Of a stretch of DNA of 64,000 bases, positions 40,071 to 46,457 are shown piece after piece; the stretch's first letter is position 1, and each line of letters starts with the position of its first letter. The stretch lies in the IMG/VR virus record IMGVR_UViG_3300034389_000010, positions 33,935 through 97,934 of that record. One strand, written 5' to 3'. The notes beneath the pieces are model-generated. The model had not been told where the DNA came from, ran no database searches, and saw only the letters and a program-made list of their open reading frames with translations. Made by a program: the position numbers and the translations under genes. Origin of the DNA: a virus.

Positions 40071-40541
40071 TTGGAAATCATTCTCGTCAAAACCATGGAC
40101 GGCTCGCTGCGCCCTGCCACCGAGGAGGGCATCGAGCAGCTGCGCAAGCTCAAGGTGGGCGCGGGGGTGCGCTGCGAGGTCAAGCAGATCCGCAACTACA
40201 AGTTCCTGCAGAAGACCATGGTGCTGTTCCGGGTGGCCTATGACCACTGGATCGAGAACAGCCTGCAGGACCTGGAGTACAAGGGCGAGAAGGTGCTGCC
40301 TTGCATCGAGCGCTTCCGCAAGGACCTGACCATCGTCGCCGGCCACTACAACGCGACATTCGATCTCAACGGCAAGGTGCGCCTGACCGCCAAGTCGCTC
40401 AGCTATGCCAGCTGCAGCGAGGAAGAGGCCCAGGCGATCTATTCCAGCGTGATCGACGCCATCCTGGCGCGGGTCTACCAGGGGCAGATGGATGAGCAGC
40501 GCCTGCAGCAGCAGGTGGATCAAATCATCCGCTTCACTTAA
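40071..40541 (+). CDS. DUF1367 (NinB-like) protein
   Basis: LRPAT, RNYKF, FRK.LTI.AGHY, AKSLSYA. Confidence 0.75.
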   Translation: MEIILVKTMDGSLRPATEEGIEQLRKLKVGAGVRCEVKQIRNYKFLQKTMVLFRVAYDHWIENSLQDLEYKGEKVLPCIERFRKDLTIVAGHYNATFDLNGKVRLTAKSLSYASCSEEEAQAIYSSVIDAILARVYQGQMDEQRLQQQVDQIIRFT

Positions 40542-40688
40542 CGAATCGCTAAGGTTCGGCTGTTAGAACGCGCGCGATTACCACGTCAACCGGCAAAAGT
40601 TCACTATTTTTCTGTGACGCATGTTGCACTTGGGGCGGCGTAACGGGACCATAAGCTCACTCTTTTGGGCATCCCGAGATACCGATTC

Positions 40689-41378
40689 ATGGCCATCCCA
40701 ACCTCCGCAAAGAACATGCGCTCGCTCAAGCCGATCCTGGCTAAGCGGCTCAGTGCTGCGCGTCGGGCTGCCAAGCTGAATCAGATCCAGGTCGCTAATC
40801 ACCTGGGCCAAAAGCAGTGCTCGCAAGTCTCCCAGTGGGAAGACGTCGAGAACGAGCGGATGCCCAAGCTCGCCGACCTGATCGCCATGGCCCAGCTCTA
40901 CGCCGTGCCGATGGATTACCTGTGCAACCTGTCGAACGACCCGATCGCGGACGTCACCGAGAACAACCAGGCTTTCCTGGCTCGCATGATGAGCAACGCC
41001 ATCGCCGATGCCCAGGAGCAGTTCACCAAGGCAATGGGCCAGAAGCTCGCCATCACCATCGACAGCCATGGCCAGGACCGCAAGGACCTGCAGTCCATTG
41101 CCCTCGCGGTGCGCGACCTCAAGCAGCGCATCGCCAAGATGCAGGAAATGAACCCCGGTTATGAAGAGGACTGGCGCGGCTACAACCCCGTCAGCCTGTC
41201 CCTGGATCGTCTGGAAGCCCTGGTGCGTGGCGCGGATCAGCGCATCGCCCAGGAGACCCGTCACTGCGCCATCATCGAGAAGGAAATGGCCATTCTCGAC
41301 GGCGAGTTCGAGCGCCGCCAGCGTGCCGATATTGGCCGGACTGTGGCGCAGATGACGCTCGATATGCAGCCCCTCTGA
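40689..41378 (+). CDS. XRE-family HTH transcriptional regulator
   Basis: RL.AAR....LNQ.QVA..LG....VSQWE....P....L...A.LY.V..DYL. Confidence 0.8.
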   Translation: MAIPTSAKNMRSLKPILAKRLSAARRAAKLNQIQVANHLGQKQCSQVSQWEDVENERMPKLADLIAMAQLYAVPMDYLCNLSNDPIADVTENNQAFLARMMSNAIADAQEQFTKAMGQKLAITIDSHGQDRKDLQSIALAVRDLKQRIAKMQEMNPGYEEDWRGYNPVSLSLDRLEALVRGADQRIAQETRHCAIIEKEMAILDGEFERRQRADIGRTVAQMTLDMQPL

Positions 41379-41379
41379 A

Positions 41380-41990
41380 TGTACCCCGAGCCGGGCGGGC
41401 CGCGATGCGGATGCCCCGGACAGCCAGGGTGTGGAGAGCGCTGATTGCAAAGATCCCACACAACCGACACAGGCGAGATTACTCCTCGCGCCCATACGAC
41501 CCTGCAGGCCTCAACCCTGCTAAGTGGGCAAGCCTGGGAATCGGTCGATCGCCCCGCGTGAAGGGGCATGAACAGCAGGACCTCGATCGCCGGCAATGGC
41601 CTGGCGCTCGTGAAGCCGATCCGGCGCCCCGACGCTTAACCGCTCCAGGGGCAAGAGCCAGGATCGCCGGGAGTGGCAACCGGCCCGAGTCATCCACGGA
41701 TGGCATCGGCAAGGTCGGCCGAGGCTATAGCCTCACGTTTTGGGGAGGCCGACCTTGACCAATGCCAGTTCGATGCGGGAGGCGTGGTAGATCGCCGATG
41801 CGTGAGAGCAGTGAAGGGCACCCCTCGCCCAGGCTCACGCTGAAATCTACAAGCCGGGTTGGGGGAGGTTACCCCCCGCGTTTGGCCCTCCGGAGGAGTT
41901 CACCGCGCCTTGGCGATAGGCGGTGCCGATAGCCCGAAAGGGCTGCATCGGAGAGTGCGCCCAACCGCGCACTGCCCCATGCAGCCACCC
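41380..41990 (+). ncRNA. About 600-nt highly structured non-coding region
   Basis: No credible ORF; consecutive and multibranch stems. Confidence 0.5.
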
Positions 41991-42010
41991 CATACCCAGT
42001 GAGACCCGCC

Positions 42011-42430
42011 ATGCAGATCAATCCCCAGCTCGTACAGGCCGCGATGGCCGACAAGGCCGTAGGCCCTGCGATCGCCAGCCTGATCAAGACCTACGCCGAA
42101 GGCCTGCCCGTTCCCGAGCACGTCCCGTTCGCGTTCGCCATTCGTACCGACCTGATTCCCGAGCACTTCGTGGGTGGCGTCCTGCCCCAGGCCGGCGACC
42201 AGCTGTCCCTGCAGGTGTACGACTGCCAGCCCATCACTGCCCAGGATGAGGCCGGCGCCGAAGTATCTGCCCATGGCGTGAAGGCCCGCTATCTGGTGAT
42301 CGCCCCCTGCGGCACCCCGCGCCATCTGCTGATTCCGAAGCCTGCCGACGAAGTGCCTGCCGCTGACGTCGCCAAGACCGAAGCCAAGAAGCCGCGCGCC
42401 ACCCGCAAGCCGCGCGAGGGTAGTAAGTAA
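42011..42430 (+). CDS. Hypothetical protein with basic tail
   Basis: 139 aa, phage-like codon usage. Confidence 0.6.
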   Translation: MQINPQLVQAAMADKAVGPAIASLIKTYAEGLPVPEHVPFAFAIRTDLIPEHFVGGVLPQAGDQLSLQVYDCQPITAQDEAGAEVSAHGVKARYLVIAPCGTPRHLLIPKPADEVPAADVAKTEAKKPRATRKPREGSK

Positions 42431-42446
42431 TACCACCCCTCTGCAT

Positions 42447-42606
42447 CCTGGTGGGGCTCCCCACTAGGCTGCATCGCAGAACCCCCAGCGAACAAGGTCG
42501 GGGGTTGTGCGATGCAGGTAGGCGCAGGACGCGCCCAGGGTATCCAGGCACAGCAATGCGGTAAGTCCTGGTGTTACCCGTCCACCGGCCCGGTGCCTGC
42601 ACCCCA
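42447..42606 (+). ncRNA. Structured RNA module (hairpin + CTGCATCG stem + tRNA-like domain)
   Basis: Complementary segments listed in findings. Confidence 0.45.
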
Positions 42607-42628
42607 TTCCCCTGTCTGTGAGCCTCCA

Positions 42629-43441
42629 ATGACGCCAGCAGCTATCACCAGCGTGCTCAACCTGAGCAGTGCCATCTACGATCTGGCCCAAGCGAGCGAG
42701 AAGGTAGAGTGGGATGTTCGCCACCAGGTAGGCGCCACCATCACTCGCCTGCTCATGGTCATCGACGCCCAAACAGGCCTGCCTGCCGTTGTGGCCAGCC
42801 TCTCCCCTGCTGTCATGGATGAGCTGGTCGAGACGTGTACCCTCGGCCAAGAGCGCGTGTACCGGCATGTTCACCGGGACGCGCCAATGGCGGACGTCGC
42901 GACCCCTGAGCCTCAGCCCGAGGCCGCTGCCTCGGACATCGATGCCGAGCTGACTGCCCTGCTGGCGGCTGTGAATGAGCGCGAGGATGCCGCTCCGGCC
43001 CAGGGCGACGAGCCTGCGTCCGAACCCGAGCTGCGCGCCCTCGGCATTCCCCAGGGCCAGCGTATCGCCTTGCGTGATTCCGGGATCTGCGATCGCAACC
43101 AGCTGCTGGCGCTGACCTGGCGTGAGCTGTCTGACCTGCCCGGTGTGGGTCTGGCTGGCGCCTCGATCATCCGTCGCAAGGTGGCCAGTGCCGGCTATGC
43201 GCTGGCAACCGAGGTCCAGGACCAGGACGACCTGGTGCGCCATGAGCCCAACTGCAGCACTGTGGGCCTGCGGATCCACCCCGACCTGCGCATGCGCCTG
43301 AATGACCTGCGGATCTACGATCTGGACGACCTGTGCCGGGTAGGCCATGCGGCCCTGGCCAGTGACCTGGTGATCGGTGACATAGGTGCTGCCTGCCTGG
43401 CGCAGAAGGCCCGCAACTTCGGCCGCGAGCTGGCGGCCTGA
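42629..43441 (+). CDS. Protein with tandem RNA polymerase alpha-CTD-like (HhH) domains
   Basis: L..LGI......L.DSGI....QLL.LT..EL..LPGVG; second, weaker copy. Confidence 0.6.
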   Translation: MTPAAITSVLNLSSAIYDLAQASEKVEWDVRHQVGATITRLLMVIDAQTGLPAVVASLSPAVMDELVETCTLGQERVYRHVHRDAPMADVATPEPQPEAAASDIDAELTALLAAVNEREDAAPAQGDEPASEPELRALGIPQGQRIALRDSGICDRNQLLALTWRELSDLPGVGLAGASIIRRKVASAGYALATEVQDQDDLVRHEPNCSTVGLRIHPDLRMRLNDLRIYDLDDLCRVGHAALASDLVIGDIGAACLAQKARNFGRELAA

Positions 43442-43578
43442 TCAAAGCGGCCCGCCGGCGTACTGGTGGGCTGTATCGGAGAGCGTCATGGTGGTCGCTT
43501 GCGACCTAACTCAGGGAAGCCGGTCGGTGTCATGACCTCAGTACCTGGGCGCCGTGGAAGACCATGACGCTCCCCGAT

Positions 43579-43729
43579 GCAGGTGAATGCGCAGGCTGAT
43601 GCGCTACACGGTCGCGAGAAGAGAAGGTTTTGGCGGATGAACGTGCTAGGCCGTGATTAGGTTCGCGGCTGCTATGCAAAACCACCGGATCGCCATCTAT
43701 GCCGGGATCAGCTCCGGCCACCTGCACCA
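43579..43729 (+). ncRNA. tRNA-like RNA ending in ACCA
   Basis: 7-bp acceptor-like stem, D-like and T-like arms, discriminator A plus CCA. Confidence 0.55.
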
Positions 43730-43851
43730 CGCGCCCAGGATTGGGCGTCGCGACCACAAGTCGCTTGCCGCGCATGGCCCAGGCCACCAGAAGCGCGCCG
43801 GAGGGGGTAACCGGCACCCATACCTATTAGATCGAACGGATAATCACCATC

Positions 43852-44727
43852 ATGACCGCATTGCAGAAACCGACCCAGGAGAGCGTCATCGCCTCGATCG
43901 TCCGCGTGCAGTTCCACCACTGGGAAGACACCCAGTTCGTGAGCTGCCTGGTCGAGCGCGATGACGGTTTCCGTGCCCACGGGTTCCACAACCCTATCGA
44001 CCCCGCTGACTTCGACCTGGAAGAGTCCCAGCGGCTGGCCTACGCCGGCGCCGTCGCCACGCTGTACGGCCTCGCCGTGTCCGGGTTCTTCGAGCGTCGC
44101 GCCATGCTGGCCGGCGCCCATGACGTGCTCGATCGCTGTGGGGTGGGTAACGAGGACGTGAGCGCGCTGAGGTTCGGCGCAGTCATGCCGGATGCCGGCA
44201 CGCAGGAGCTGTACGACAGATTGGCCGCTGTGCTGGACAAGAGGCAGCCCCTCCCCGAATGGCCGCCAGCCACCCAGGAGCAGCGCGACGCGATCCAGCA
44301 ACTCCTGGGTGCTCACCTGGTGGGCGAGGTGGAGCCTGCTGGCCCCTTCGAGTATCCCGAGACGCCTTATATCCAGGTCAAGAACCCCACGCTCACCGTA
44401 AACAGTTACTTCGGCGGGAAGCCATCCACCGAGGTAGGCCCTGCAGCTGGATCTGCCGTGATCGTTCGTATGCCTGAGTCGTTTAAGTACCCCCATGGTG
44501 CCGAGGTGATCGGCGTCGTGAAGCGTGGCCCCCAGTGCCCTGGGTCCATGGGTGTCGAGATCGCTATTGATTCGCCAGGGCGCTTCTCTGCCACCACCTC
44601 GATCTATGCCCACCGCTGGAACCAGCTCGACCTGGTAGAGCGGCCTTTCACCGAGGATGAGGCCAGACAGCTTGGCGTCATTCGCGGGCACCTGGAAGCC
44701 GAGGGGGTTTATCGTGCGACCCCCTGA
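43852..44727 (+). CDS. N-terminal phage gp49/66 (Acb4-like) domain fused to unknown domains
   Basis: SC.V...DGF...G....DPADFD.E....LA...A...L..L pattern. Confidence 0.55.
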   Translation: MTALQKPTQESVIASIVRVQFHHWEDTQFVSCLVERDDGFRAHGFHNPIDPADFDLEESQRLAYAGAVATLYGLAVSGFFERRAMLAGAHDVLDRCGVGNEDVSALRFGAVMPDAGTQELYDRLAAVLDKRQPLPEWPPATQEQRDAIQQLLGAHLVGEVEPAGPFEYPETPYIQVKNPTLTVNSYFGGKPSTEVGPAAGSAVIVRMPESFKYPHGAEVIGVVKRGPQCPGSMGVEIAIDSPGRFSATTSIYAHRWNQLDLVERPFTEDEARQLGVIRGHLEAEGVYRATP

Positions 44728-45497: not shown

Positions 45498-46457
45498 ATG
45501 GCTCCGCCCAAGACCACGGCCAGTAAGCCAGCCACCAAGCGCAAGGCCCCGGCCAAGAAGCCCGCCACCCCCAAGGCCAAGACGGCCAGTAAGCCCAAGG
45601 CCGCAAAGCCTGATCCGGTACCTGCCACTCCCCTCACCCCCGAGGAGGAGCTACTGGCGTCCATGGATCCTCGTCACGTCCGGTTCGTGGAGAGCTACCT
45701 GGGTTCGTACAACCAGACCAGCGCCTACCGTGCAGCCTTCGACACCAAGGGGGACATGAGCGACAACAGCTGCGCCGCCAACGCCTCACGCCTGCTAAGA
45801 ACTGATAAGGTCGCCCGGCTCATGGCCCTGCGCGTCCGTCAGGCATTCGACGATATGGACGGGGACATCAAGACCCGCGCCCTTGAGCGTCTGATGGGCA
45901 TGGCCTTCGGCGATCCGAACGAGCTGACCGAGATCCGCCGGGAGTGCTGCCGCTTCTGCTACGGCATCGATAACGAATACCAGTACAAGCCCAGCGAGTG
46001 GCGCGAGAAGCTGGACGAGTACGCTCGCGACCTGGCCGAGGCGACCAAGAACGAAAGCAAGCCGCCGGCAGAGCCCAAGCCGGCAGGCGGTACCGGCTTT
46101 GATCCGCGCCTGGAGCCCAATGCCGAATGCCCCGAGTGCTTTGGTGAAGGCGTAGAGCGCCAAGTGCTCAAGGACACCCGTCACCTGTCTCCTGCCGGCC
46201 GCGCCCTGTACGCCGGGTCGAAGTGGACCAAGGACGGCCTGCAGATCCTGCAGCACGACCAGCTCAAGGCCTTCGATATGCTGACCAGGGTCATCAAGAT
46301 GCTGGACGACCGCCCCGAGGCGATCATCAACGTCGTCGCCGCCGAGGTCCTGGACGAGATTTACACCAAGGCCATGCAGAACGCGGCAGAAGGCAAGGAA
46401 CGGCTGGGCGCAAGGCTCGGCGTGCCCCCGCCGGTGCGGCCAGGGCTCACGGGCTGA
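45498..46457 (+). CDS. Terminase small subunit with Zn-finger insertion
   Basis: RFVESYL..YNQT.AYRAA...NASRLL...KV; CC.FC.G...CPEC.GEG; HDQ.KA. Confidence 0.75.
   Translation: MAPPKTTASKPATKRKAPAKKPATPKAKTASKPKAAKPDPVPATPLTPEEELLASMDPRHVRFVESYLGSYNQTSAYRAAFDTKGDMSDNSCAANASRLLRTDKVARLMALRVRQAFDDMDGDIKTRALERLMGMAFGDPNELTEIRRECCRFCYGIDNEYQYKPSEWREKLDEYARDLAEATKNESKPPAEPKPAGGTGFDPRLEPNAECPECFGEGVERQVLKDTRHLSPAGRALYAGSKWTKDGLQILQHDQLKAFDMLTRVIKMLDDRPEAIINVVAAEVLDEIYTKAMQNAAEGKERLGARLGVPPPVRPGLTG

Follow-up and report, generated by a model that had tools for sequence, protein, structure and literature searches.

The 3' 64 kb of the 97.9-kb IMG/VR virus record IMGVR_UViG_3300034389_000010 (65.6% G+C; hereafter the window, meaning the whole stretch of DNA analysed) contains three copies of an RNA module, A, B and C, each made up of a 5' hairpin that adjoins a long irregular stem and each placed before one of three consecutive genes. 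The module is conserved in structure, its paired positions covary among related Pseudomonas phages and prophages, it recurs at the same kinds of genomic position, and it is coupled to tRNA-like RNA domains. A protective hairpin followed by a box with fixed irregularities and a free top, located at stop codons, genes and tRNA-like RNAs, is what would be expected of an endonucleolytic processing signal. With moderate confidence we infer that the modules are RNA processing and end-protection signals, cut by RNase III and/or RNase P.

The initial annotation had placed the three modules before consecutive genes, and all are present where it put them, except that the 5' arm of module B occupies 42469-78 rather than 42468-77. 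The module features are as follows.

41931..41944, + strand: 5' hairpin of module A, AGCCC-GAAA-GGGCT, 5 bp with a GAAA loop, assigned from sequence and fold.
41941..41986, + strand: long stem of module A (class I), in which GGCTGCAT (41941-48) pairs with ATGCAGCC (41979-86).
42447..42468, + strand: 5' hairpin of module B, CCTGGTGGG-GCTC-CCCACTAGG, 9 bp, whose GG end abuts the long stem.
42469..42517, + strand: long stem of module B (class II), with base CUGCAUCGCA / UGCGAUGCAG.
43450..43471, + strand: 5' hairpin of module C, 9 bp with a CGUA loop.
43471..43582, + strand: long stem of module C (class II), 112 nt, with arms at 43471-92 and 43561-82.

In module A the long stem pairs GGCUGCAU with AUGCAGCC, with C.C as pair 7 and A.C as pair 10, and the tail, ACCCCAUACCC, is followed by the ATG of open reading frame (ORF) ORF139 at 42011. 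The 3' arm of the module A hairpin overlaps the long stem by 4 nt, so that hairpin and stem compete. The arms of module B are CTGCATCGCA (42469-78) and TGCGATGCAG (42508-17); a direct repeat, CTGCAT, flanks its 5' hairpin at 42441-42446 and 42469-42474. The stem of module C has U.G as pair 4, A.C as pair 10 and a branched apical part. Fold energies of modules A, B and C are -32, -52.9 and -74.7 kcal/mol (z = -5.1, -7.1 and -4.5, respectively), and none of 200 shuffles folded as well. Throughout the 97.9-kb genome, hairpin-preceded GG-CTGYATCG-SAGA occurs at these three modules only; the remaining five matches to CTGYATCG lie in coding sequence and have no module context.

The same anatomy recurs in about 12 or more distinct copies: three in the window, three in the relative G002, two in G001, three in G355, one in G003, and a nested form found in Pseudomonas aeruginosa phages. 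The 5' hairpin has an unrelated sequence in each copy, with a stem of 3-12 bp and loops that include GAAA, GCAA, UUCG, UGCG, CGUA and one of 12 nt, and its GG end meets CUG with no spacer in 12 or more copies. The lower stem is a conserved 9-bp box, CUGYAU(C)GG / CC(S)AURCAG, with irregularities at fixed positions: pair 7 is C.C, C.A or G.G, otherwise C-G or U-A, and pairs 10-11 are mostly A.C, otherwise A-U, U-A or a bulge. Above it, the upper stem can be of any sequence but is fully compensated, and the apical part is free, from 10 to ~170 nt; whole modules range from 42 to ~200 nt. Closing arms that are kept around a variable interior had been described in the initial annotation, and the relatives bear this out, with a base box common to the copies and differing upper stems and apical parts. 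Compensatory changes in homologues, on which that annotation had hinged, are also present: pair 4 appears as C-G, U.G or U-A, pair 7 as C-G, U-A or a mismatch, pair 10 as A.C, A-U or U-A, and pair 9, G-C elsewhere, is switched to C-G in module B. Because box, pairing and 5' hairpin are retained at orthologous sites whose neighbouring proteins are 39-44% identical, selection appears to act on the element itself.

Two classes of module can be distinguished by their 3' ends. Class I comprises module A, modules A and B of G002, and the nested form of P. aeruginosa phages; it is extended by GG/CC and ends in ...CAGCC, then A, then CC(A/C) in about half of the distinct copies, with the next start codon 20-40 nt away. 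Such an ending is reminiscent of an acceptor end or of the 3' terminus of 4.5S RNA. Class II, which ends in ...GAUGCAG, comprises modules B and C, G002 module C, both G001 modules, the G003 module and G355 modules 1-3; after the first G001 module the next helix is merely a small hairpin. Modules are located just after stop codons; next comes either a start codon, at a distance of 20-40 nt, or, with no gap, a tRNA-like RNA or real tRNA. Their orientation is always that of the flanking genes and of the oriented tRNA or tRNA-like genes.

Among the relatives, G002 (93.8 kb) is syntenic with the window, with amino acid identities of 78% for NinB, 44% for a helix-turn-helix (HTH) regulator, 39% for ORF139 and 48% for the small terminase (TerS). 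Its three modules occupy the corresponding three intergenic slots, with the same base box and different upper stems. G001 (85 kb) lacks ORF139, ORF270 and ORF291 but has retained two modules, both within the 1 kb of non-coding DNA that separates an HU-like gene from TerS. G355, a prophage in a Pseudomonas species genome, has three modules in an RNA-only array, and a 13-kb fragment, G003, has a single module preceding a tRNA-like RNA and a tRNA. Structured non-coding stretches separate the modules of G001 (L161 8906-9300, ~400 nt) and of G355 (L302 2040-2280, ~240 nt); the two have motifs GAACAUGGCGAAAGCCG and GCGUAAUGGCC in common, and the G001 stretch has no Rfam match. A tRNA-Met (CAT) gene lies in G002 (L018 4690-4757, equivalent to L160 9474-9539 on the - strand), within the long non-coding region upstream of its module A equivalent; none is present there in the window.

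Scanning IMG/VR with the 16-mer of the 5' arm identified ~18 P. aeruginosa-type prophage contigs, and a BLAST comparison of one of these with GenBank gave matches to its module region in 70 Pseudomonas phage records (Ab31, PAJU2-like, JBD88b, YMC11/02/R656 and others). In this nested form a 9-bp hairpin is followed by a stem, GGGCUGUAUCGGAGAGUGGUCUG...CAGACCACUC(C/U)CC(C/G)AUACAGCC, that encloses 100-170 nt, and then by a ribosome-binding site and gene. The pattern of both arms was present in 1 of 401 Pseudomonas species genomes (G355, with its prophage-like RNA array), and a shorter two-arm pattern had no match in the genome collection. The 16-mer gave chance matches in unrelated taxa of that collection, none with a credible 3' arm among the matches listed, a result that says nothing on range. 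BLAST of the window's module region against GenBank phages, in near and distant modes, gave no match, and a single-protein search with the HTH regulator for related loci found nothing. A NinB profile returned 21 loci, among which the module is confined to the relatives already known. The covariance-model search suggested in the initial annotation succeeded in part: a model built from four short copies recovered its seeds and the second G001 module (E = 0.0015), but copies with long interiors scored poorly (module C, E = 0.27), and the model is not usable as a family detector. No description of the element emerged from keyword searches of the literature, which covered tRNA-like RNAs of phages and RNase III processing sites in temperate phages of Pseudomonas.

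Two of the window modules are followed by tRNA-like domains with which they share nucleotides.

43579..43729, + strand: tRNA-like domain after module C, with a 7-bp closing helix GCAGGUG/CACCUGC (GCAGGTG at 43579-85 with CACCTGC at 43719-25), then ACCA, and near-invariant hairpins AUGCGCAGGCUGAUGCGCU and GCCGGGAUCAGCUCCGGC.
42513..42601, + strand: cloverleaf-like domain B', whose closing helix UGCAGG/CCUGCA (TGCAGG at 42513-18 with CCTGCA at 42596-601) reuses the last nucleotides of module B; the ATG of ORF270 is at 42629.

The domain after module C has its GCAG in common with the module and also includes a 5-bp hairpin. Its family has a common plan: a covarying closing helix; GA and the near-invariant hairpin AUGCGCAGGCUGAUGCGCU; a middle part that varies and in many cases includes a canonical T-arm; a second hairpin, GCCGGAGAUCAGCACCGGC; and the 3' strand of the closing helix, often then NCCA. 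The loops of the AUGCGCAGGCUGAUGCGCU and GCCGGAGAUCAGCACCGGC hairpins are mutually complementary, and in G002 they show a compensatory change from GCUG/CAGC to GCCG/CGGC. The pattern AUGCGCAKGCUGAKGCGCU is present in at least 120 IMG/VR contigs, whose G+C contents differ widely. At the loci examined (L037-L151) the family often adjoins tRNA genes. At 21 loci its position is downstream of a cI-like repressor; its other location is between Q/NinG and lysis genes. Rfam has no entry for the family, GenBank records of Klebsiella, Erwinia and Escherichia coli phages, Stx2c phages included, leave it unannotated, and an exact-sequence literature search with two of the domain's hairpin motifs returned no paper. 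Domain B', of which a homologue follows the second G001 module, looks like a variant of this family that has lost both kissing loops. The start of ORF139, ATGCAGATC, resembles the leader AUGCAGAUGA of stand-alone tRNA-like genes. ARAGORN found no tRNA genes in the window.

The RNA enclosed by the nested form is itself tRNA-like and is highly variable: near-identical P. aeruginosa prophages have at least five unrelated interiors between identical arms (L003 4863-5023; L005, L007, L011, L020). Further replaced interiors, with breakpoints in the arms, are present in three of four contigs from public RNA runs that carry this form; these contigs are assembled (1-44 kb), cannot show RNA ends and do not prove transcription.

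Several observations are consistent with a processing signal. Every convincing gene in the 35.9-62.8 kb portion of the window is on the + strand, and on that strand neither intrinsic terminators nor sigma-70-like promoters are predicted between 39 and 47 kb, which fits a single long transcript in need of internal punctuation. The geometry is also of RNase III type, with a lower stem of 6-9 bp, irregular pairs at 7 and 10-11, an upper stem of at least 7 bp and an intercistronic location after stop codons. Phage T7 has intercistronic RNase III sites such as R1.1, and RNase III also acts on stems that flank rRNA. Like the T7 sites, the modules are hairpins that separate cistrons within a long phage transcript, are divided into lower stem, irregular region and upper stem, and would leave the upstream product with a protective 3' hairpin; like the pre-rRNA stems, the nested module stem of P. 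aeruginosa phages flanks a structured RNA. However, a strict 9-bp box and an obligatory 5' hairpin directly adjoining the stem set the modules apart from RNase III sites, as do the shortness and irregularity of some copies and the nucleotides shared with the tRNA-like helix that follows; cleavage of the modules is part of our proposal. In mitochondria, tRNA-like folds and stem-loops at mRNA boundaries (tRNA punctuation and t-elements) serve as RNase P or RNase Z signals, as described by Forner et al. 2007 (PMC1920247). These elements, and RNase P cleavage of polycistronic and phage RNAs, form a second precedent: tRNA-like domains alternate with the modules, as do real tRNAs in the relatives. 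Unlike such substrates, the module has no T-loop or D-arm, and the base just 5' of the putative cut is part of a hairpin.

As a processing signal, the module would act in cis within a long + strand transcript that runs from the NinB and HTH-regulator genes to the terminase. A host endoribonuclease would cut at or within the lower stem. The first candidate is RNase III, which would act on the succession of lower stem, internal loop and upper stem as in the T7 intercistronic sites; the second is RNase P, whose cut would fall at the 5' boundary of the acceptor-like helix in copies followed by a tRNA-like domain or an ACC tail. Cleavage would leave the upstream RNA with a stable hairpin end. Downstream, it would either set the next gene free or liberate the tRNA-like RNA after the stem (the enclosed one in the case of P. 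aeruginosa phages). One possible order is that cutting of the module frees AUGCAG, that the tRNA-like closing helix then forms, and that RNase P trims. Both nucleases are plausible candidates. The initial annotation had proposed RNase III-type sites that release discrete RNAs and tune the three downstream genes. That the modules are conserved, structure-constrained elements on the coding strand in intergenic slots is supported, and RNase III is one of two candidate enzymes. Tuning of the three genes is too narrow a reading, because, although modules do precede genes in the window, those of G001, G355 and G003 precede non-coding RNAs only and the nested stem encloses a tRNA-like RNA.

A number of points weigh against this proposal. 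First, the contigs from RNA runs, being assembled (1-44 kb), are unable to show ends. Second, the arms are near-palindromic, folding energies and G.U counts for the + and - strands give no consistent winner, and the conserved A.C at pair 10 would be G.U on the - strand; since the pairing statistics are symmetric, the transcribed strand is taken from gene and tRNA orientation. Third, RNase III needs no sequence box, so RNase III alone does not explain the strict 9-bp box, and the shortest copies have just ~14-17 irregular pairs, a marginal length for this enzyme. Fourth, for RNase P, the nucleotide preceding the cut would sit in the paired 5' hairpin, and class II copies do not themselves carry an ACCA tail. 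The independent copies are also few (~12 distinct). That neither RNase III nor RNase P accounts for the strict box suggests a specific recognition partner.

The nucleotides shared between module and tRNA-like domain allow another, rather unlikely, reading, in which the element is an RNA folding switch: AUGCAG would pair either back to CUGCAU or forward to CUGCA, gating the tRNA-like closing helix and thereby its maturation or translation of the next gene. In all eight tandem class II copies (modules B and C, G002 module C, the second G001 module, the G003 module and G355 modules 1-3) a tRNA-like domain follows, and the last 4-6 nt of the module (AUGCAG) form the 5' strand of its closing helix, with ...CUGCA as the 3' strand. 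This three-segment complementarity favours a switch, as does the finding that the two registers are within 5 kcal/mol of each other in five of the eight copies. The initial annotation was correct that the 3' TGCAG of modules B and C can pair downstream, in the closing helix of the tRNA-like domain. Its further claim of mutually exclusive folds was overstated: the competing overlap is real, but the junction is 4-6 nt and the two domains can coexist after a 4-bp branch migration. In the minimum-energy fold of module C with its tRNA-like domain, the closing helix is complete, the module is 4 pairs shorter and the 5' hairpin is longer, the latter being lengthened by the freed 5' nucleotides of the module; forcing the full module C base costs 3.8-4.9 kcal/mol. 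In module B the module register is favoured, by 2.4 kcal/mol in a 6-pair test applied across copies and by 7.6 kcal/mol in a first test. Over the eight copies the difference between registers runs from -5 to +12 kcal/mol, so the sign of the preference is inconsistent. Of the more than 17 pairs in the stem, just 4-6 are shared, which means that formation of one domain does not unfold the other. There is no sign of a ligand pocket or trigger, and the box is also kept where a competing partner is missing, in class I copies (module A, and modules A and B of G002) and in the nested form of P. aeruginosa phages. Because the overlap is a junction of just 4-6 nt, it lends the switch little weight, and in these fold models the TGCAG overlap is better described as a conserved junction feature than as a wholesale alternative fold.

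The hypervariable interiors between identical arms leave room for two further readings. One, which we consider an outside chance, treats the module as the 'repeat' of a phage RNA-cassette array, a processing signal around or beside interchangeable, hypervariable tRNA-like cargo. The cargo would consist of changing tRNA mimics, for example decoys or antidotes against host tRNA-targeting defences, and the module would play the part of the repeats in a CRISPR transcript. The other, somewhat less likely again, is that the arms are DNA-level recombination anchors through which phages swap RNA or gene cassettes, with the stem being the basal helix of a tRNA-like RNA or a remnant of one. The unrelated interiors of near-identical P. 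aeruginosa prophages and the three replacements with arm breakpoints from RNA runs are as such anchors would predict, the genes that lie between modules are not the same in the window, G002 and G001, and the G003 module resembles an insertion, flanked by CCCCAATGCAG and CCCCGATGCAG, in comparison with L137. However, copies that enclose no RNA have also been retained, 5' hairpin included, at the orthologous sites described above, which argues for selection on the element, and the compensatory changes point to selection on pairing rather than on sequence identity.

Control of transcription is improbable. The hairpin pair could serve as an RNA polymerase pause, an attenuator or a processive antitermination RNA like that of phage HK022, whose put element is a compact two-stem-loop nascent RNA of ~70 nt that contains a triplex and acts in cis in early-operon leaders (PMC9378689). 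The arrangement of two stem-loops is similar, the window modules follow an HTH regulator gene, and the related tRNA-like family is found in leaders of antiterminated operons, at the sites near cI-like repressors and Q/NinG given above. However, put is compact and present once per early operon, whereas the modules measure 42 to ~200 nt with up to three within 1-2 kb, and no hairpin is followed by a U-tract. Judged on the description of put rather than on its sequence, the modules do not belong with it, being 42-198 nt long with unrelated apical parts and 2-3 copies per region.

A site acting as DNA, whether a cruciform or attC-like folded single-strand recombination site, a protein-binding palindrome or a mimic of a CRISPR repeat hairpin, is very improbable: the module does share with integron attC a paired box at the base, fixed irregular, unpaired positions, a variable apex and a location between cassette-like accessory genes, and its stem base equals that of the type I-F repeat hairpin, which we take to be CUGC/GCAG, but attC is folded single-stranded DNA used by an integron integrase at R and L boxes, the RYYYAAC/GTTRRRY boxes are absent from the module sequences read, no integrase was found near the modules (although no search was aimed at integrases), arm spacing of 42-200 nt rules out a simple operator, and the tight coupling to oriented tRNA-like RNAs favours a role as RNA.

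Other known elements were considered and set aside. Searches of Rfam 15 gave no match to the modules or tRNA-like domains of the window, the P. aeruginosa loci and the relatives, apart from a chance-level ohsC match on module B (E = 6.7), and in sequence comparisons the module matches no known RNA family. Host REP/REPIN elements are excluded by an occurrence in 1 of 401 Pseudomonas species genomes, which is prophage-like, and by the absence of the short form from the genome collection. An intrinsic terminator is excluded because the hairpins run into CUGYAUCGG and no + strand terminator-like site is found at 39-47 kb. Bacterial Y RNA (YrlA) with Ro/Rsr is likewise excluded, as the 97.9-kb phage has no TROVE (Rsr) or RtcB gene and no Rfam Y RNA match was obtained. 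A sigma-54 promoter, a RegB-type GGAG site and an RNase E consensus were rejected by eye, since spacing or motif varies across copies.

The modules lie in non-coding DNA between a regulatory region and the terminase, in the following setting.

40071-40541, + strand: NinB gene, upstream of the module region.
40665-41378, + strand: HTH regulator gene, upstream of the module region.
42011..42430, + strand: ORF139, the gene after module A, with a homologue in G002.
42629..43441, + strand: ORF270, the gene after module B and domain B'.
43852..44727, + strand: ORF291, the gene after module C and its tRNA-like domain.
45498-46457, + strand: TerS, downstream of the module region.

By codon-position G+C, the segments 41379-42010, 42431-42628 and 43442-43851, which flank ORF139, ORF270 and ORF291, show no coding signal. 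The three ORFs (42011-44727) have no Pfam family and only weak PHROG matches, and the labels 'alpha-CTD mimic' and 'Acb4-like' given in the initial annotation were not confirmed. Directly 3' of the HTH regulator gene, both the window (41385-41465; 26.5 bits) and G002 (L160 9655-9734, - strand; 26.3 bits) have syntenic matches to Proteo-phage-1 RNA (RF03044) that are below its gathering score of 42; this site is probably a divergent but real member of that family.

If the modules are processing signals, they would represent a compact, sequence-defined rule for the cutting of transcripts and the release of tRNA-like RNAs in temperate Pseudomonas phages, with possible uses in annotating the transcript units of phages and as an insulator part in synthetic constructs. 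Conservation of the 9-bp box implies that a specific partner recognizes it. The modules also draw attention to a widespread but unannotated family of phage tRNA-like RNAs, and the differences in its variable core between near-identical prophages hint at selection by host defences.

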